Origin: Methanothrix sp.
GTDB taxonomy: Archaea > Halobacteriota > Methanosarcinia > Methanotrichales > Methanotrichaceae
Reading direction: 5' to 3'
Assembly: GCA_040770465.1 (NCBI GenBank)
Contig: JAXGJB010000008.1
Span: 15,275-79,274 of the forward strand
DNA length: 64,000 bases
A program made the position numbers and the translations under genes. The notes under the pieces were generated by a model. The model made no database searches. It was given only the letters and a program-made list of their open reading frames with translations, and was not told where the DNA came from. Shown in pieces: positions 29,916 through 56,040 of this stretch (position 1 is its first letter; every line of letters starts with the position of its first letter).

Positions 29916-30050
29916 CTATAGAGCTATATCCTTTTCGATCTCGGCGATGGCCTCCTCGAAAGAGATCGCCTCTTCGCAGGATGCTTTGGCAGCATCATAG
30001 GCTCGAATGGATTCAAGCTTCTCCAGCTCGATTAGAAGATAGAGTGTCAT
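29916..30050 (-). pseudogene. probable truncated RelB-like antitoxin
   Basis: Manual translation MTLYLLIELEKLESIRAYDAAKASCEEAISFEEAIAEIEKDIAL resembles an antitoxin C-terminal half; begins next to the ISL3 left end; no intact toxin downstream. Confidence 0.45.
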
Positions 30051-30073
30051 CCTGCTTAAACGTTAATTTTATT

Positions 30074-31375
30074 GGCTCTTCACTATTCCGTGTGGGTAAC
30101 AGATAGCCATTTATCATAATCATGCTACCGAATAAAAAGCATGTCAATCTCACAAGAGGATCTTTTCAAGCAGGCACTGAACTTGCAGCCGCCCTGGTTA
30201 ATCGACTCAATCGACTTCGACGTGGAAGGGAAGCGACTCGACATCCACATAGATTTCGAACGTGGTGGTAAATTTCCATGTCCTAGATGCGGCAACTCTG
30301 AATGCGATGTTCATGATACAATCGATAGGACTTGGCGTCATCTTAACTTCTTCCAATTCAAGACCTACCTTCATTGTCGCGTTCCCAGAACGAAATGCGA
30401 AACTTGCGGAGTCAAACTTGTCAAGGTGCCTTGGGCAAGAAAAGGTAGCGGTTTTTCCCTCCTAATGGATTCCTTGATAATCTTAATGGCTCAGCACATG
30501 CCCGTAAAATCTGTAGCGGACTTGATCGGAGAACATGATACTCGGATATGGCGAGTCCTGGAATACTACGTATTAGAAGCAAGATCGGAAGAGGACTTCT
30601 CAGAGGTTGAATCAGTAGGAGTTGACGAGACATCCAGAGCAAAAGGTCACAAATACGTATCAGTTTTCATAGATTTAGATAAATCCAAGGTGTTATATGT
30701 ATGTGAAGGAAAAGATGCTTCAGCAATTGAGTCGTTTAGAGATGACCTTGAGGATCATAAAGGATCTTTTAAAAATGTACGTAATTTCTGCTGTGATATG
30801 TCCCCCGCATTCATATCTGGAGTCACTAGGAACTTCCCAGAAACTTCAATAACATTCGATAAGTTCCATGTTATGAAGCTGATGAACCAAGCAGTAGATC
30901 AAGTGAGACGTGAAGAGCAATTTCATAACAGCAACCTGAAGTATACAAGATATATTTGGCTAAAAAATCCCGAGAAACTTACGAAAAAACAGAGATATGA
31001 ATTGGGATCTCTCAGAGATATGAGATTAAAAACAATGAGAGCTTACAACATCAAATTGAGCCTACGCGATTTCTGGAACTTCAAAGACCAGCTATTGGCG
31101 GAAGATTATCTAAAACGTTGGTACTTTTGGGCGACACACAGCAGATTAAAACCAGTTATTGATACCGCAAAAGCGATCAAGGGGCATTGGAAAGGAATTA
31201 TAAACTATATTAACACCAGAATAGATAACGGAATCTTAGAGGGAATAAATAGCCTCATTCAATCAGCAAAAGACGACGCAAGAGGATTCAGGACGACAAA
31301 GAATTTTGTTATAACTATATATCTTAGATTAGGAAAACTCAAGTTCAATCTACCCACATAAAACAGCGAGGAGCC
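30074..31375 (+). mobile_element. ISL3-family insertion sequence
   Basis: IRL GGCTCTTCACTATTCCGTGTGGGTA versus IRR(rc) GGCTCCTCGCTGTTTTATGTGGGTA (19/25); AT-rich; T-rich flanks with no perfect 8-bp TSD. Confidence 0.9.
30141..31361 (+). CDS. ISL3 transposase
   Basis: CPRC zinc finger, WRHLNFF, VPWA, GVDETS, CCDMSPAF, FDKFHV, EGINS. Confidence 0.95.
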   Translation: MSISQEDLFKQALNLQPPWLIDSIDFDVEGKRLDIHIDFERGGKFPCPRCGNSECDVHDTIDRTWRHLNFFQFKTYLHCRVPRTKCETCGVKLVKVPWARKGSGFSLLMDSLIILMAQHMPVKSVADLIGEHDTRIWRVLEYYVLEARSEEDFSEVESVGVDETSRAKGHKYVSVFIDLDKSKVLYVCEGKDASAIESFRDDLEDHKGSFKNVRNFCCDMSPAFISGVTRNFPETSITFDKFHVMKLMNQAVDQVRREEQFHNSNLKYTRYIWLKNPEKLTKKQRYELGSLRDMRLKTMRAYNIKLSLRDFWNFKDQLLAEDYLKRWYFWATHSRLKPVIDTAKAIKGHWKGIINYINTRIDNGILEGINSLIQSAKDDARGFRTTKNFVITIYLRLGKLKFNLPT

Positions 31376-31511
31376 TTTTTTTTGCTTTCCCAAAATGTGC
31401 GGGTTTTAGCATATGAAGGGAATTTCCCGCATTCCAGCTTCCACCGGGCATCAGCCTCGGGCTTAACTATTTTATCTCCCTCCTCCAAAGGGGGCGGAAA
31501 AGGAGGTCCTG

Positions 31512-32618
31512 ATGATGAAGTTTGCAAGCCACGTCGAGGGGATCGACATATCAGGGATAAGAAAGAGCTTCGAGGGGGCGGGTCCGGGAGCGATAAACCT
31601 GGGCCTCGGCCAGCCCGACTTCGACACTCCCGATCACATCAAGCGAGCGGCGATTGAGGCGATCGAGGAGGGGTTCACGGGGTACACCATGAACCTGGGC
31701 ACCGCCGAGCTGAGGGAGGCCCTCTCCGAGAAGTTCAGGCGGGATAACGGCCTCGATTACGCGCCGGGCGAGATCATGGTCACGAGCGGCGCAAGCGAAG
31801 CCCTATTTCTCGCCATCGCCGCCGTCGTCGAGAAGGAGGACGAGGTTCTTTTGGGCGACCCGGGTTTCGTATCCTACGCTGCCCTCACCCGGGTCGCTCA
31901 GGGAAGGCCCGTCGCCGTCCCCATGGACGAGAGGTTCCGCCTCACCCCCGAGGCCGTCGCCGAGAAGATAACGTCGAGGACTCGGGCCCTCGTCGTCAAC
32001 TCCCCCAACAACCCCACCGGCTCGGTCCAGACGAATGAGGAGCTGCGGGCCCTGGCAGAGCTTGCCGAGGATCATGGCTTCGCCCTCATTTCCGACGAGG
32101 TCTACGAGCACTTCATCTACGAGGGAGAGCATGTGAGCCCCGCCCTCTACTCCGATAACGTCATCACCATCAACGCCGTATCCAAGACCTACGCCATGAC
32201 CGGCTGGAGGCTCGGCTACCTGGCGGCTCGGGGCGAGGCCCTGGAGAACATGCTGAAGGTCCACCAGTACATCCAGGCCTGCGCTTCGTCCATCAGCCAG
32301 AGGGCGGCCCTGGCCGCCGTCAGCGGTCCTCAGGAATGCGTCGGCGAGATGAAGGCCGAGTTTCTGAGGAGAAGGGACGTTTTGGTTTCGGGGCTCCGGT
32401 CGATGGGGCTGGAGATCGAAGAGCCGCCAGGAGCGTTCTACGCATTCCCAAAAGTGGGGGATGGAAACGACGTTGCCGCCCGGCTGATCAAGGGCGGGGT
32501 GGTGACGGTTCCGGGGTCCGCCTTCGGATCGGCGGCAAAAGATCACATAAGGATATCTTACGCCGCCTCCATGGGGGATATAAAAACGGCTCTCGCGCGG
32601 ATGAGAGAAATTCTTTAA
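31512..32618 (+). CDS. PLP-dependent class I/II (aspartate) aminotransferase
   Basis: NLGLGQPDFDTP, NSPNNPTG, SDEVYE, SKTYAMTGWRLG. Confidence 0.93.
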   Translation: MMKFASHVEGIDISGIRKSFEGAGPGAINLGLGQPDFDTPDHIKRAAIEAIEEGFTGYTMNLGTAELREALSEKFRRDNGLDYAPGEIMVTSGASEALFLAIAAVVEKEDEVLLGDPGFVSYAALTRVAQGRPVAVPMDERFRLTPEAVAEKITSRTRALVVNSPNNPTGSVQTNEELRALAELAEDHGFALISDEVYEHFIYEGEHVSPALYSDNVITINAVSKTYAMTGWRLGYLAARGEALENMLKVHQYIQACASSISQRAALAAVSGPQECVGEMKAEFLRRRDVLVSGLRSMGLEIEEPPGAFYAFPKVGDGNDVAARLIKGGVVTVPGSAFGSAAKDHIRISYAASMGDIKTALARMREIL

Positions 32619-49498: not shown

Positions 49499-49793
49499 GG
49501 AAGACCTCATTTTCAGGAGAATTATGCGCCAAAGCGGCGGGCGGAATCGGAGGAGGAATTCCGTCGGGGAGATATAATAGGGTGTCGATGAAACATCATT
49601 CTCCAAAATTCAATTTTAGATACTCAGTAAAAATCCAGTCATCCTATTGCGGCAGTGCAATCGCAGCATGTTGCAAAGTTTTTTAAACAAGAATGCTGGT
49701 AATGAAATCATCCTAATCGCAGTAGAATCCACATTTGCTATATGTTGAATATCATTTCGCAAACCACATATACTAATACGATAATTAGAACTT

Positions 49794-50117
49794 ATGAAGC
49801 AGCTTGTGGAATTGCCCATGGAAAGCGGGGGATCTGTCCTGGTCGAGGCTGAGATTCAGCCGGGTGGTATGCAAAAATCATCCGCTGCAGGAAATATATT
49901 GGCGGCCACTAACACCCTAGAGAATGCGCTGGAGACTATTAATCCAGCTGTATCTGCTGTTTGGAAAAAGATTCAAGAGGGTACCGCATCGCCTCAAGAA
50001 ATTACGGTTCAGTTTGGCCTAGGCCTTAGACTGAATACAGAAGGGGCTCTTAAGTTCTTTATATCAGGAGAAAGCAATGCGAGCCTAAACGTTAGCTTAT
50101 CTTGGAGGAAAGCCTAA
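49794..50117 (+). CDS. Trypco1 / CU044_2847-like small protein
   Basis: LVE.P...GGSVLVE..., LE.AL..I.P, PQEITVQFGL.L..EG....ISGE.NASL.V.L.W; directly upstream of a trypsin gene. Confidence 0.8.
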   Translation: MKQLVELPMESGGSVLVEAEIQPGGMQKSSAAGNILAATNTLENALETINPAVSAVWKKIQEGTASPQEITVQFGLGLRLNTEGALKFFISGESNASLNVSLSWRKA

Positions 50118-50145
50118 TCGTTGATATCGGTCTGGTGAAAGGTGA

Positions 50146-51381
50146 GTGGAAATGGCATTAGATCCTGAGAAGGCCGTTGTTAGAATATTTGATAAATATA
50201 GAAAAGTTGTTGGCTCTGGCGCTTATATTGGTCCGCGTTGGGTAGTGACATGTGCCCATGTTGTGCAGGCGGCCTGTGGAATATCAGGAGACGAGATCCC
50301 AAATCTTGAAGAAATCAAAGATAAAGAAATATGCCTGGATTTTCCCATGGTAGCACTTTCGCGAAAAATCAGCTCCAGGATTAAGATATGGGAGAAGGCA
50401 GAAGATATCGCCGGGCTGGAGCTTAAGGAAGATCCCCCAGAATCTGCCAAGACCGTGGTCCTTGTAAATCTGAAGAACCTCAAAGGCCATCCCTTCTCCG
50501 TTCTTGGATTCCCACCGGGCCAGGAGGATATGGGGATGAATGTAAAGGGTTTGCTTAGCGGAAGGCTCGCAGATGGCCGAATTCAAATGGACGGTACTAC
50601 TGATCCAACCTATTGGGTGAAGCCCGGATTCAGCGGAACGCCAGTTTGGGATGAGACGCTCAAGGAGGTTGTGGGGATCGTTGTAGCCTCCGAGAGAGAT
50701 GAGCGCCTTAAGGTGGCAGCCTTTATTCCCAATGAGGCCATAATCAAAGCGTGGCCGGATATAGAGGCTGAGTTGCCGAAAGTGATCAGAACATTGCCGG
50801 AGAATGAGTCTATCGGTGTTCCCTGCGATCTTGATTCCGTGGAGATCACTTTTTCCCGGCCGATGCAGAATGGACACAGCATAACTAGTCCAATTTTTAA
50901 GATCGCTGAGATCGTTCACCAACCGGAACCTAATACATTCATATTGAAAAGGGCTGCTGATAGAATTTTGCCACATGATACAAAAATAACCCTGGTTATA
51001 AACCCCTCTGATTACGGGCCTAACTTCAGGGACGAAAATGGCTTGCCGTCTCCTAGCGACCAAATGGTTGTTTTTAAGACTGGGCCATGCTCTGATACAT
51101 CTTATCCATCGGCGCTCGTTAATTCTATCGACAAAATTGCACTTCTAAATTCCATGACGAATGCTTTTGATAGGCAGGAAATTAATATAATCTGCAAGAT
51201 GGTTGAGGGAAATCTTAAAAAAGATGGAAAACAATTAAAGCTTAGTTTGGAGATAGTGAGCGGAAATAGTGCGCGTCTAGATACTCAAATCCTCGACCTG
51301 ATAGAATATCTGGGCAATAGGGGCTATTTAAGCTATCTTATAAAATCAATTCGTGAGAGATATCCAGATTTCAGTTGGTGA
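50146..51381 (+). CDS. trypsin-like serine protease + Ig-like domain + C-terminal effector-associated (EAD-like) domain
   Basis: Triad VTCAHVV / EDIAGLEL / PGFSGTPV; Big_5-like PKVIRTLP..ITFSRPM..FRDENG..FKTG; C-terminal AFDRQEI..IC..LIEYL..RGYL..L...IRERYP. Confidence 0.8.
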   Translation: MEMALDPEKAVVRIFDKYRKVVGSGAYIGPRWVVTCAHVVQAACGISGDEIPNLEEIKDKEICLDFPMVALSRKISSRIKIWEKAEDIAGLELKEDPPESAKTVVLVNLKNLKGHPFSVLGFPPGQEDMGMNVKGLLSGRLADGRIQMDGTTDPTYWVKPGFSGTPVWDETLKEVVGIVVASERDERLKVAAFIPNEAIIKAWPDIEAELPKVIRTLPENESIGVPCDLDSVEITFSRPMQNGHSITSPIFKIAEIVHQPEPNTFILKRAADRILPHDTKITLVINPSDYGPNFRDENGLPSPSDQMVVFKTGPCSDTSYPSALVNSIDKIALLNSMTNAFDRQEINIICKMVEGNLKKDGKQLKLSLEIVSGNSARLDTQILDLIEYLGNRGYLSYLIKSIRERYPDFSW

Positions 51382-51386
51382 ATAAT

Positions 51387-52766
51387 ATGTCTGTTGAGGC
51401 TTTGGCAAGGGGTTTGATGGCGCTCCAAGTCTCGGAGGAGTATGCTAGGACTCCTGGGTACTATGCTGTGACAGCCCCTAATAATGGCAGGAGAAGTTGG
51501 GAGTATCAACATGAAGGGGACTTCTGGCGAGATCTAATTCCTGATGATATTTCAGTAAGGACTCCAAAAATATGCTGTGGAGATAGCGTGAATCTGCGTA
51601 TGTTTAGGATTTCGTCATGGCTTCCAAGGGTTCCAGGTCTTTTCTGGAAGGAGGAGTCGAGAAGGATCCGAGGGGCCTCAGAAAATGAGTTTTTAAGAAG
51701 GGCGTATCATATAGATGGTCCAGCCACATTCAGACCCTCTGGCTATTGGAATGATAGTTCCAACCTGCTATCGAACGTCTTTGCTGAATCTTCGGTAGAC
51801 TTTAATAGAAATGATGTGGAGCCTGTCATATTCAATCCCTTGGGAAAGAGCTATCAAGTCCTAGGAGGCGTGGGCAATTTGCGTCTACTACCCAGCTCCA
51901 GTGACGCATTGCTCTGTGCTACATCATCAGGAACTTATTGGAGGGGTATACCTGTTCTGGTTAGGGGTGATGCATTTGAAAACCTTTCCAATATACCTGC
52001 CCATCGTTATGTTGATATCAGTGGGGTATGGGCTTCCATGCCCAGAGAATATGCCGGGCTGCTAGGTGGAGACAACGGCATCCCTAGGGGATGCATTCTA
52101 GTGGAAGAACGAAATAGCATCGTGCGGAAGATACCGAAGCTGATCAGTGATCGCTTCTGGGGAGATAGTGCTGCGTGGACCCTATTCGAGTACCGAGATG
52201 ATAGTGGTTTGATAAGAAATGCATATAGCTATGTAATTTTTCAGGCTGGCTATGGTGGTGGGCTTAGCTATCTGGACCAGCGAACTGATTACGACCCTGA
52301 TAGTGCCGGAGATAGTGCCGGAGCGGCAAGCTGGCTTCGTAGCTATGTAGATTTTTATAAAGGCAGTATCTTAACAGAGTACGATCAATACCTTCCCAGC
52401 CTTGGCGTAATGCTTCCCTTGAATGAGATGCATTCAGGCGTCAATATTCGAACACTAAAGAGCTTCATTGAGAGGGTGATTAAAAGAGCATTATCTCCAG
52501 AAACCGTCAACTATGACGCTGTTGCACCATTCCTGATGAATTACCTTAACTTGCAGGATCTCAAGATTTTGGTGTATAGATACTTAGGAATAAATATTGA
52601 ACTTATTATATCTCCGGGGGCTATTAAGTCTCAGGCAATTGAAGCCATCCTTCAATATTGTGAAGAAAATAGTCTGATGGAAAAGCTCGTCTTTGGCATC
52701 TATGATGGGGGATGGGGTGATAAGATAAGGGAACTTGTAAATCAAGGGAGATATCCAGGATTTTAG
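51387..52766 (+). CDS. uncharacterised protein with C-terminal EAD-like domain
   Basis: 459-aa ORF coupled to the protease gene; C-terminal FLMNYLNLQDLK.L....LG.NIE.I......AI..ILQYCE....MEKL. Confidence 0.7.
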   Translation: MSVEALARGLMALQVSEEYARTPGYYAVTAPNNGRRSWEYQHEGDFWRDLIPDDISVRTPKICCGDSVNLRMFRISSWLPRVPGLFWKEESRRIRGASENEFLRRAYHIDGPATFRPSGYWNDSSNLLSNVFAESSVDFNRNDVEPVIFNPLGKSYQVLGGVGNLRLLPSSSDALLCATSSGTYWRGIPVLVRGDAFENLSNIPAHRYVDISGVWASMPREYAGLLGGDNGIPRGCILVEERNSIVRKIPKLISDRFWGDSAAWTLFEYRDDSGLIRNAYSYVIFQAGYGGGLSYLDQRTDYDPDSAGDSAGAASWLRSYVDFYKGSILTEYDQYLPSLGVMLPLNEMHSGVNIRTLKSFIERVIKRALSPETVNYDAVAPFLMNYLNLQDLKILVYRYLGINIELIISPGAIKSQAIEAILQYCEENSLMEKLVFGIYDGGWGDKIRELVNQGRYPGF

Positions 52767-52845
52767 GCATTGTTTTGTGATCATCCGGTCACTTGTATGT
52801 TCTTTGGAACCGTCAATGCTCTGCAGACTCATCCTTAAATTAAAT

Positions 52846-53127
52846 CCCACATTCCGCACCTTAACGTCCTAAATCGAGTATTTTGCTAGCTAGCGATTCC
52901 GCTAATATAATTATAAATTCAGATATTCATCTACATTAATATTATGTCCGCTTATTGCCGACTCCATATTGAGCGAATATCTCAACATGTCACGTCGCAA
53001 GGATAATCAACATAATGTCAACATAAACAAATTAAAATAACTTAATAAATTATAATTATTGAATTTAATATCACATATCGATAGCAGTAAAAATACCAAT
53101 TTCAGAACTCAAGGTGCGGAATGTGGG
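52846..53127. mobile_element. 282-bp MITE (IS1634-like ends)
   Basis: Perfect 17-bp TIR CCCACATTCCGCACCTT / AAGGTGCGGAATGTGGG; 6-bp TSD TTAAAT at 52840-52845 and 53128-53133; AT-rich interior with no ORF in the track. Confidence 0.85.
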
Positions 53128-53156
53128 TTAAATGAAGCCTTAGAGTAGACAATGAA

Positions 53157-54326
53157 TTAGAAAACTCTCTTCAGCAAGGGAATCCGCCTCAGCACCAGCT
53201 CGCTCGCCACAAAGCACAGCGGCACCGCCACCGCCGCCGCCACGACGAACTTGACGAGGGGATGCCACGCGAACCCCCGCAGGGCCGCGGTGACCAGGAC
53301 CAGGATCGGCGGGTGGAAGACGTAGACTGAGAAGCTGTTATCGGACATGAACCGTGCGAACCCGCCGCCAAAGTCGAACCGCTCCCGGAATATGACGACG
53401 ATGCCGAGAATCGCCCCCAGGCCGAAGAAGGACTCCCAGAGGGCGTAAGCCGCGCTCTGCCAGTACAGGCCGCCGTAGACCTTCGAGATGTCGCCACCCG
53501 GCCCGATCCCGACGATGAAGAGGGCGAGCCAGAAGGCGGTCCCGCCGACCAGGGCGGCCTTGAGCCACGCCATCCCGAAGGAATAGGGGATGCGGAGGAG
53601 CCAGCGCCTCCGGCGGGCGCCGATCCCCACGGCGAAGAGGGCGATGTAGGAGGCGAAGAAGGAGAGCTGCATGTTCAGGACGGCGGTCCCAATGGGCTGG
53701 ACCAGGCGGATGGTGAAGGCTGCGGCTGCGATGACGAGGCCGAGTTTGATGATTTCACGGTGGCCGGGGAGCTCTCCGTCCCCTTCTCCGCGCCCTTCGC
53801 CCTCTTTTGGGTCGGGGAGAAGAAGCCTCGCCGCGGCGTAAGCGGCGGAGAAGATCAGGAGTGCCAGAGCAAACCACATCGGCCCCGAGCCGCCGATGAA
53901 GTTGAGGCCGAGGACGTATCTGAGGTAAAACCCTCCAGGAGCCGGCAGAGGGGCCTCCGCCTCCAGGGCCATCACGTAATATACGAGGGCCGGGTTGATG
54001 AAGAGCATGTAGATCAGGGCGGGGATGCCGAGCCGGACGGCCCGGTCCCTCAGGAACTTCCGGGCGCCCTTCCGGTCGAAGGAGGCGGGGACGAAGTATC
54101 CTGCAATGAGGAAGAGGAGGCCCATGGAGTAGGCCTGGGTGAAGGAGAGGATGATCCCAAAGGCGAGGCCCGTGAGGGGGCCGAGCTCCGCAGGCTCGAT
54201 GTAGTACCACTTCCCCAGGTTCGAGTAGGTCACGGCGGCGTGGAGGACGACCACCTGGACTATCACGAACCATCGGATGTTATCGGCGAAATACAGCCTT
54301 GCGGGTTTGGTCGTGCTTTCCGGCAT
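53157..54326 (-). CDS. acyltransferase 3 family (OpgC/MdoC-like)
   Basis: RLYFADNIR....VV.H...Y, MGLLFLIAGYF, F..DR..RLG.P, WF, SF.VYVFH. Confidence 0.88.
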   Translation of the reverse strand: MPESTTKPARLYFADNIRWFVIVQVVVLHAAVTYSNLGKWYYIEPAELGPLTGLAFGIILSFTQAYSMGLLFLIAGYFVPASFDRKGARKFLRDRAVRLGIPALIYMLFINPALVYYVMALEAEAPLPAPGGFYLRYVLGLNFIGGSGPMWFALALLIFSAAYAAARLLLPDPKEGEGRGEGDGELPGHREIIKLGLVIAAAAFTIRLVQPIGTAVLNMQLSFFASYIALFAVGIGARRRRWLLRIPYSFGMAWLKAALVGGTAFWLALFIVGIGPGGDISKVYGGLYWQSAAYALWESFFGLGAILGIVVIFRERFDFGGGFARFMSDNSFSVYVFHPPILVLVTAALRGFAWHPLVKFVVAAAVAVPLCFVASELVLRRIPLLKRVF

Positions 54327-55533: not shown

Positions 55534-56040
55534 ATGTATAACAAAATGGCAAGATTGGGATTGGTAACCTTGGAGCTGATGCTGGCAGAGCTGAGAAGGC
55601 CGGTCTACGCCGGGGACGTCCCCGTCAAGATGGACCTGGAAAAAGACCCTTCCGAGGCGGTATACGGCAGCGGCGAGGGGAGCTATGATTATGCAGGCGG
55701 CGCAGGCCCCGATGAAGATGACGACGGCTGCGGTTGTGGCGGCGACGGCTGTGGTGACGGTGACGGTGACGGTGGCTGCGGCGGCGGATGCGGTGGAGGC
55801 TGTGGTGGCGGCTGCGGCGCCGAGATGACTCCGGCAATGACAATTGCGCCGGAATCCGTACCCGCAGCCGGACCGGCACCGGCCCAGGGACCGACGGCCG
55901 GACCTGCAGACTTTTGGCTTGGTGCCCCTGTAGTCGCCGACCCCGTCGGGGATCGAGACAGAACCAGAGACAGATCACCTCGGCCCGACCGAAAGAAGCT
56001 CCCCTGGTCCTTCGCCCCCAGGGCGAGGATAGCGAGCTAG
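55534..56040 (+). CDS. hypothetical protein with Asp/Gly/Cys-rich repeat
   Basis: TATATATA upstream; DDGCGCGGDGCGDGDGDGGCGGGCGGGCGGGCG tract followed by a Pro/Ala-rich linker. Confidence 0.65.
   Translation: MYNKMARLGLVTLELMLAELRRPVYAGDVPVKMDLEKDPSEAVYGSGEGSYDYAGGAGPDEDDDGCGCGGDGCGDGDGDGGCGGGCGGGCGGGCGAEMTPAMTIAPESVPAAGPAPAQGPTAGPADFWLGAPVVADPVGDRDRTRDRSPRPDRKKLPWSFAPRARIAS

Follow-up and report, generated by a model that had tools for sequence, protein, structure and literature searches.

Protease-activating adaptors of the death fold lie at the heart of animal inflammasomes and apoptosomes, and until now those of bacteria have been associated with nucleoside triphosphatase (NTPase) sensors, NLR-like or other. 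In EAD-coupled systems, one copy of the adaptor sits on a core component and others on effectors encoded by adjacent genes, with occasional direct fusions of effector and core; a homotypic coupling resembling that of death domains has been proposed for them (Kaur et al., PMC7159879). In the CARD-protease systems of a 2023 preprint (Wein et al., PMC10312443; PDB 8SRZ, 8SS1), the protease carries its CARD at the N-terminus and is partnered by an NLR-like ATPase, with a gasdermin, a nuclease or a phospholipase as effector. Entry 8SS1 is the CARD-like domain of a trypsin-like protease from Azospirillum, and such domains were shown there to be essential for defence in the related Lysobacter and Pedobacter systems (Wein et al., PMC10312443). 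Here we consider a 64,000-nucleotide stretch of a Methanothrix sp. chromosome (contig JAXGJB010000008.1, hereafter the window), in which a three-gene island codes for Trypco1, a trypsin-like protease and, in last position, a protein (gene 3, 51387..52766, forward strand) made of a 375-residue module and a C-terminal EAD7 adaptor. EAD-coupled peptidase cassettes are a known type of system, as are Trypco1 and EAD7; the module is without a curated family.

The original prediction, based on the letters of the window, had set apart an unassigned domain of about 375 residues at 51387-52500, with conserved-looking motifs and an EAD-like tail. This observation is confirmed. The segment lies in a single open reading frame (ORF, 51375..52766, forward strand, 463 residues when counted from a TTG at 51375, which is also the origin of the residue numbers used below), and its end coincides with the boundary between the module (residues 1-375, ending at base 52499) and the death-like tail (residues 379-463). 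Residues 1-375 matched no Pfam, PADLOC or NCBIfam family at E≤1, the sole match of the protein being a weak EAD7 in the tail. The likelier start is the ATG at 51387, giving 459 residues: it has GGTGA 7 nucleotides upstream and stands 5 nucleotides past the stop codon of the protease gene, and a database protein (P0001, 459 residues) identical to the product begins at the same ATG. The gene is present in a single copy in its genome. All six motifs are found in the translation, EGDFW at 47-51, SWLPRVPGLFW at 81-91, GGVGNLRL at 164-171, ATSSG..RGIPV at 182-194, AAWTLFE at 266-272 and LTEYDQ at 333-338, and they lie where conservation is highest in an alignment of 143 sequences; this alignment covers the module from about residue 20 through 375, with residues 111-150 and 291-310 as insertions of the window lineage. 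At least 90% conservation is seen there for W51, W82, P87, G88, R99, P155, K158, G164, G165, G167, G191, P193, Y324, G330 and D337, a collection of aromatic, basic and Gly/Pro residues with no catalytic-looking set among them.

This conservation goes beyond chance, as an exhaustive HMMER scan of 1,835,955,588 representative proteins returned 257 matches at E≤1e-3, of which 43 reached E≤1e-10 and 10 reached E≤1e-30. When 5.8 billion clusters were searched through a word index, 18 proteins matched at E≤1e-3, the window's own included. The module family is real, conserved and rare. It occurs in none of 15 genomes of the same genus, in one of 40 relatives (a distant copy in G019) and, G042 itself counted, in two of the 401 genomes sampled from the phylum to which G042 belongs; a scan of genome contigs using the single gene 3 protein as query gave no match. 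The G019 copy (L004:8971-9945, 324 residues), from a member of a related methanogen family, has no tail and lies in a patch with a guanine-plus-cytosine (GC) content of 0.36-0.39, directly after two genes resembling nitrogenase component 1, with no protease nearby. Another distant relative, in G233, is found between a DUF4365 protein and an unknown gene, adjoining a type I restriction-modification system, and it too has no protease neighbour.

Structure prediction followed by Foldseek was among the checks initially proposed. An AlphaFold model of the full-length protein, based on an 18-sequence alignment, had a mean predicted local distance difference test score (pLDDT) of 61.4. With residues 1-375 and the 143-sequence alignment, pLDDT rose to 83.6 and the predicted template modelling score to 0.86, for one compact module. 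Its core, residues 39-262 (51489..52160, forward strand), is in the predicted model a five-stranded closed beta-barrel superposable on known oligonucleotide/oligosaccharide-binding (OB) domains. The likeness is one of fold, to RPA, MCM, tRNA-synthetase and SSB domains, at structural identities of 5-17%, and the HIN rows of this comparison were tied with many other OB folds. Foldseek gave no match at E≤1e-3 against PDB and the viral models of BFVD, the best rows being OB-fold proteins; the best scores of a structural comparison with the ESM Atlas, 0.79-0.80, were at noise level; and the 143-sequence profile, run against all PDB sequences, had as its best match an unrelated reductase (E 0.039). 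No sequence or profile homology linked the core to a specific OB family, whether RPA/SSB, MCM-N, the N-domain of class IIb tRNA-synthetases, HIN or S1/CSD. The barrel is interrupted by an insertion (residues 111-150; 51705..51824, forward strand) that is lineage-specific and modelled with low confidence (pLDDT 45-61, alignment occupancy 0.07-0.45), being confined to the window protein and the group of relatives nearest to it, P0008 included. It is followed by a confidently modelled alpha/beta extension (residues 263-375; 52161..52499, forward strand), composed of a beta-hairpin (263-291) and helices at 312-327 and 358-373, with Y324, G330 and D337 conserved. The extension had no structural match, in a comparison that barely covered the regions outside 39-262, and we do not claim a new fold. 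Two more specific assignments were rejected. The sequence GKS at 157-159 is no P-loop: the GxxxxGK[ST] context is missing, and the surrounding fold is that of an OB domain, not of a P-loop protein. An OB nuclease of the SNase type is unsupported, as none is present among the top 50 structural rows and no acidic/Arg catalytic set is conserved.

The tail of gene 3 (residues 379-463; 52509..52763, forward strand) is a small, all-helical, non-enzymatic terminal domain of the death-like (CARD-like) kind, best read as a divergent EAD7. Against a cut-off of 32 bits, the Pfam model PF19960 scored 20.3 bits (E 4.8e-4) on the tail by itself, 14.9 bits on the whole protein and 18.2 bits in a genome search, all below that cut-off. 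Precomputed PF19960 matches are present on the aligned tail of six of 18 close relatives, and an in-family hidden Markov model (HMM) seeded from PF19960-bearing tails recovers the window tail as well. A second EAD7 copy ends the adjacent gene 2 (50146..51381, forward strand, 411 residues), a trypsin-like serine protease (PF13365, E 1.1e-10; Big_5, E 0.01) with a Trypsin_2 head at about 20-200, an Ig-like middle at about 211-315 and the EAD7 tail at 326-411 (bases 51121-51378). Its translation contains the His-bearing motif TCAHV and the Ser-bearing motif GFSGTPV. Pfam EAD7 gave the protease tail an E of 0.23, and the identification came through proteins found elsewhere: residues 211-407 share 33% identity (E 1.3e-22) with the C-terminal half of the L017 CHAT protein, a half that Pfam reads as Big_5 plus EAD7 (E 1.2e-10), and residues 326-411 matched the EAD7 tails that end CHAT proteins in L006, L008, L019 and L022, at tblastn E-values of 1e-8 to 1e-22. 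Eight CHAT-side tails were used, of which two pass the 32-bit EAD7 cut-off (L006:6507-7988 at 41.5 bits and L017:1608-3494 at 41.4 bits), five are below it at 21-28 bits, and one (L007:1454-2908) was outside the Pfam scan. An HMM built from the eight scored 83.9 bits on the window protease tail and listed 13 target-family tails at 14-25 bits; conversely, an HMM of target-side tails listed seven of the eight CHAT-side tails at 16-24 bits. These cross-searches used small databases, so that the bit scores are the figures to read, and neither listed the window's own opposite tail. Direct comparison of the two window tails gave nothing by BLASTP and a probability of 0.7% when alignment A2 was aligned with the protease tail by hhalign. 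Because of the cross-hits through the CHAT-side tails, with no direct match, the tails of genes 2 and 3 are best seen as distinct subtypes of one EAD7 superfamily, a relation that is bridged through the CHAT-side tails only. By the same alignments, the window protease is a trypsin head placed on the Ig-EAD7 chassis that elsewhere bears a CHAT head. A predicted complex of the two tails (gene 3 residues 367-463, with alignment A2, and protease residues 315-411) scored 0.02 against a mark of 0.32, a value with no bearing on binding either way. Past the EAD7 helices, the two proteins have similar end peptides, RYPDF and RYPGF, and the 3' ends of their genes share a 20-nucleotide direct repeat, 80% identical (51348-51367 and 52739-52758).

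The link with EAD7-tagged proteins is conserved in close bacterial relatives. Scans of genome contigs, with alignment A2, and of metagenome contigs gave four and eight loci, which reduce to nine distinct ones; eight of these show sequence upstream of the target gene, L021 being cut off. In all eight, the gene directly upstream ends in EAD7. Five have there a CHAT-EAD7 gene, CHAT being a caspase-like protease (L006, L008, L022, L023 and, as a degraded fragment, L019/L020); one has a gene cut by the contig end and known by its EAD7 tail (L016); and two have a ZnR-TPR-EAD7 or NB-ARC-TPR-EAD7 gene with CHAT genes further upstream (the L005/L017 type and L007), the NB-ARC-TPR-EAD7 protein being found in L007 only. 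Among the cassettes examined, the combination of Trypco1 and trypsin was seen in the window only. The relative nearest to the target, at 49% identity (L019:4941-6474, the same as in L020), is degraded, truncated and frame-broken: a 196-residue CHAT fragment with EAD7 precedes a copy of the target that lacks residues ~282-390 and contains a frame change. These cassettes hold further recurrent genes. An unnamed family of 380-410 residues, with 36-60% mutual identity, is encoded directly upstream of the CHAT-EAD7 gene in L006, L007, L017, L022 and L023 (L006:5329-6483, L007:260-1423, L017:572-1714, L022:4180-5412, L023:1-210), in the position that Trypco1 has beside the trypsin gene; it had no Pfam match for the L006, L017 and L022 copies and no PDB sequence match. 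In L008, a clostripain-type C11 peptidase takes its position. After the target gene, two unrelated cassettes have a protein of 333-337 residues (L022:8231-9244 and L005:5421-6422, also in L018), 46% identical and with no Pfam match for the L022 copy, which may be a further cassette component.

What follows the module is variable. Among 142 relatives, iterated in-family HMM searches found EAD7-like tails in 64, while 27 have tails shorter than 40 residues and 51 have other tails. A Pfam scan covered 123 of 163 proteins, the window protein being its first row (left out were the identical P0001, 22 proteins of less than 300 residues and 18 others, five of these being scanned separately). At E≤0.01 it returned EAD7 in 16 members, EAD1 in three, EAD11 in two, and TIR_2, CHAT, SLFN_AlbA_2 and Pup in one each, with weak and probably chance matches in three; the window protein had no match at that threshold. 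In distant relatives, the EAD7 tail is replaced by EAD1, EAD11, TIR, CHAT or TPR, and cases in point of domains placed C-terminal to the module are TIR in P0137 (362-486), CHAT in P0125 (381-550), TPR in P0150 (from about 506) and EAD11 in P0104 (405-481). In P0055, a Schlafen/AlbA_2 domain is N-terminal to it. Fused forms longer than 811 residues were not found, the word-limited search being weak evidence on this point.

In the window, genes 1 to 3 lie on one strand in a 3.5-kb low-GC island (49610..53150), with GC 0.32-0.52 within a chromosome at 0.62-0.72. Gene 1 (49794..50117, forward strand, 107 residues) is Trypco1, trypsin-co-occurring domain 1 (PF19493, E 1.1e-17; NCBIfam CU044_2847 family, E 8e-13), and it stands directly upstream of the Trypsin_2 gene, which is the Trypsin-Trypco pairing. 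The closest relatives of the protease are Trypsin_2 plus EAD7 proteins (37-43% identity over the protease domain) and the next ones are fusions to EAD9, nSTAND1, TIR and VMAP-C; from these fusions, gene 2 belongs in the conflict-system trypsin clade delineated by Kaur et al. (PMC7159879). The host is a methanogenic archaeon, with an archaeal RNase P RNA (209.6 bits) and McrA. Flanking sequences are syntenic in three genomes of the same genus (G001, G006 and G002, at about 81-86% identity), up to window position 49590 and again from 53158-53163, and in G001 McrA is on the same chromosome as these flanks. Between them, G001 has a low-GC gene for a 1046-residue type IIG restriction-modification enzyme of the Eco57I/MmeI kind (L034:1902-5042), and G006 has two unknown ORFs. 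Since same-genus genomes hold other cargo between the same flanks, the site is a hotspot for changing defence genes, and the cassette is not native to the lineage. At the right end of the island, an imperfect 42-nucleotide inverted repeat, 74% complementary (52846-52887 and 53086-53127), surrounds about 200 nucleotides of GC 0.32 and could be a miniature mobile-element remnant or an insertion scar.

How does this island compare with what has been described? As in the EAD-coupled systems (Kaur, Burroughs, Iyer and Aravind; eLife 2020, PMC7159879; 2021, PMC8195603), the same EAD, here EAD7, ends two adjacent genes, one partner is a trypsin- or caspase-like peptidase, Trypco1 lies by the trypsin gene, effectors are interchangeable and distribution is sporadic and island-like. 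By contrast, no MoxR-vWA, STAND, GTPase or EACC1 core was found in the island, nor elsewhere in the genome at the sensitivity of Pfam EAD7, and the EAD7 partner is an unnamed OB module without a Pfam model. The genome search for EAD7 (2.54 Mb, E≤1) returned gene 3 only, at a sensitivity that missed the divergent protease tail. None of the three island genes codes for an NTPase, so the island has no NTPase core with a cognate EAD of the sort that defines the NTP-dependent ternary systems (MoxR-vWA-VMAP/iSTAND, GAP1-GTPase). As for the CARD-NLR-protease layout, neither an NLR-like ATPase nor a separate gene for a cell-killing effector is in the island; the adaptors here are C-terminal, the ATPase is missing and the partner is an OB-fold module.

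EACC1 has a Pfam family, and no Pfam family matched the module at E≤1. The two-gene EACC1-caspase system has the same layout, a constant non-enzymatic part and a caspase-family protease with variable partners, and EACC1 is put forward, where that system is treated, as the sensor activating its protease (PMC7159879). EACC1 is, however, a small single-pass membrane domain, whereas the module is predicted to be a soluble 375-residue OB-based fold. In animals, AIM2-like receptors combine PYD and HIN-200: an OB-type HIN sensor, a death-fold adaptor and a caspase. There is no sequence relationship between AIM2 and the module; HIN is a tandem pair of OB domains and the module a single OB core with an unrelated extension, and the adaptor of gene 3 is C-terminal. 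The parallel is therefore one of functional analogy, in which DNA binding by the module is hypothetical.

With these likenesses in mind, a scenario may be drawn in which gene 3 would provide the core, constant and non-enzymatic, of a small conflict cassette of the abortive-infection type that works through a protease. The module, OB barrel and family-specific alpha/beta extension together, would act as input and bind an invader-derived ligand. As the module has an OB core and its Trp, Arg and Lys residues are invariant, a nucleic acid would be the simplest candidate, although a protein or a small nucleotide might do. EAD7 would be the output: clustering driven by the ligand would pair it with the EAD7 of the neighbouring trypsin-like protease, which would become active through induced proximity, no NTPase being involved, and would then cut the co-encoded Trypco1 or cellular targets. 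The original prediction had wavered between effector and sensor, payload and adaptor, and that interpretation is supported in part. We lean tentatively, at not quite an even chance, to the second term of this choice, in which the module is the constant part and, as sensor or core, draws in EAD7-tagged proteases in an NTPase-free layout resembling that of AIM2. The reasons are that the module stays constant while the EADs, or even whole effectors, attached to it change, that most cassettes hold no other candidate for the input, and that its conserved residues are aromatic, basic or Gly/Pro rather than a catalytic set. A fuller version is more doubtful: a prokaryotic equivalent of the AIM2 inflammasome that needs no NTPase, where a dedicated OB receptor would itself bind invader nucleic acid and cluster, its EAD7 nucleating and activating CHAT or trypsin-like proteases with a cognate EAD7, and where this head-plus-adaptor design would have travelled among Chloroflexota, Acidobacteriota and a methanogenic archaeon, the protease head being swapped on the way.

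The main rival, unlikely but the one that has to be taken most seriously, turns the arrangement around. The module would be an effector or pro-effector, recruited through EAD7 and cleaved by the protease, for instance in loop 111-150, and the freed OB module would stop growth by attacking nucleic acids or some other target. Kaur et al. class EAD7 with adaptors that mainly recruit effectors, and they list OB-fold RNA-binding domains in effector positions (PMC7159879). Protease-activated pro-effectors have been proven elsewhere, as pro-nucleases (PMC12799240) and as gasdermins (PMC10312443), and in two of the eight loci (L005 and L007) a TPR or NB-ARC-TPR EAD7 protein could be the sensor. Yet the flexible insertion that could serve as a cleavage loop in the window protein is lineage-specific and therefore cannot be a general cleavage site, the module has no conserved set of residues that looks catalytic, its direct fusions to TIR and CHAT effectors would be unexpected, and most cassettes lack any other candidate for a sensor. 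To return to the sensor or core reading, it could also be mistaken in sign. The 5-nucleotide gap between genes 2 and 3 indicates a tight translational coupling typical of toxin-antitoxin-like pairs, and the module might be a negative regulator or decoy that keeps the protease inactive by EAD7 contact, in the manner of an antitoxin or guard, until it is lost or modified in infection. We consider this improbable, as single-polypeptide fusions to TIR, CHAT or TPR, as well as stand-alone copies, are hard to reconcile with it, and a large, well-conserved 375-residue fold exceeds what an inhibitor needs. Least probable by far is the absence of any role in defence, with a housekeeping or mobile-element nucleic-acid-binding protein placed by chance beside proteases. 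The likeness of the OB core to domains of RPA, MCM, tRNA-synthetases and SSB would fit such a protein, and so would the neighbourhood of nitrogenase-like genes in G019. But the family is extremely sparse, its close relatives invariably come with EAD, CHAT or trypsin genes, it has no sequence similarity to any solved protein, and the gene is part of a low-GC insert, at a site where a relative has a restriction-modification enzyme.

A search of main texts found no description of the module or of a cassette combining OB module, EAD7 and protease; the supplementary tables that go with PMC7159879 and PMC8195603, which list many unnamed domains, were outside that search and may include the module. 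The analysis defines a new domain family, with about 257 representative clusters, and brings out another unnamed family, of about 380-410 residues, as a partner found before CHAT-EAD7 proteases. A clean head swap, from CHAT to trypsin with Trypco1 on a shared Ig-EAD7 chassis, is documented, and its occurrence in a methanogen adds to the interest of the case. If the sensor or core reading is true, OB modules that partner directly with EAD7 proteases, in cassettes most of which are free of NTPases, would represent a simpler input logic, and receptor-driven death-fold signalling could be tested in prokaryotes, an archaeon included.

A few features of the window complete this description. A terminator-like hairpin with a T-rich tail (52777..52802, forward strand) begins 11 nucleotides past the stop codon of gene 3; it is a consensus match only, from a scan that gave one site against a mean of 3.1 in shuffled sequences, which is not significant alone, and that is not informative for an archaeon. 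Further away, an ORF at 55534-56040 (forward strand), GC-rich and overlapped by ORFs in other frames, contains a long low-complexity run of Gly, Cys and Asp (repeats of the GCGGG type) and is a doubtful gene. A second low-GC patch is seen at window positions 30001-32000 (0.468 against about 0.60), where an ORF of 406 residues (30141-31361) may be another inserted gene.
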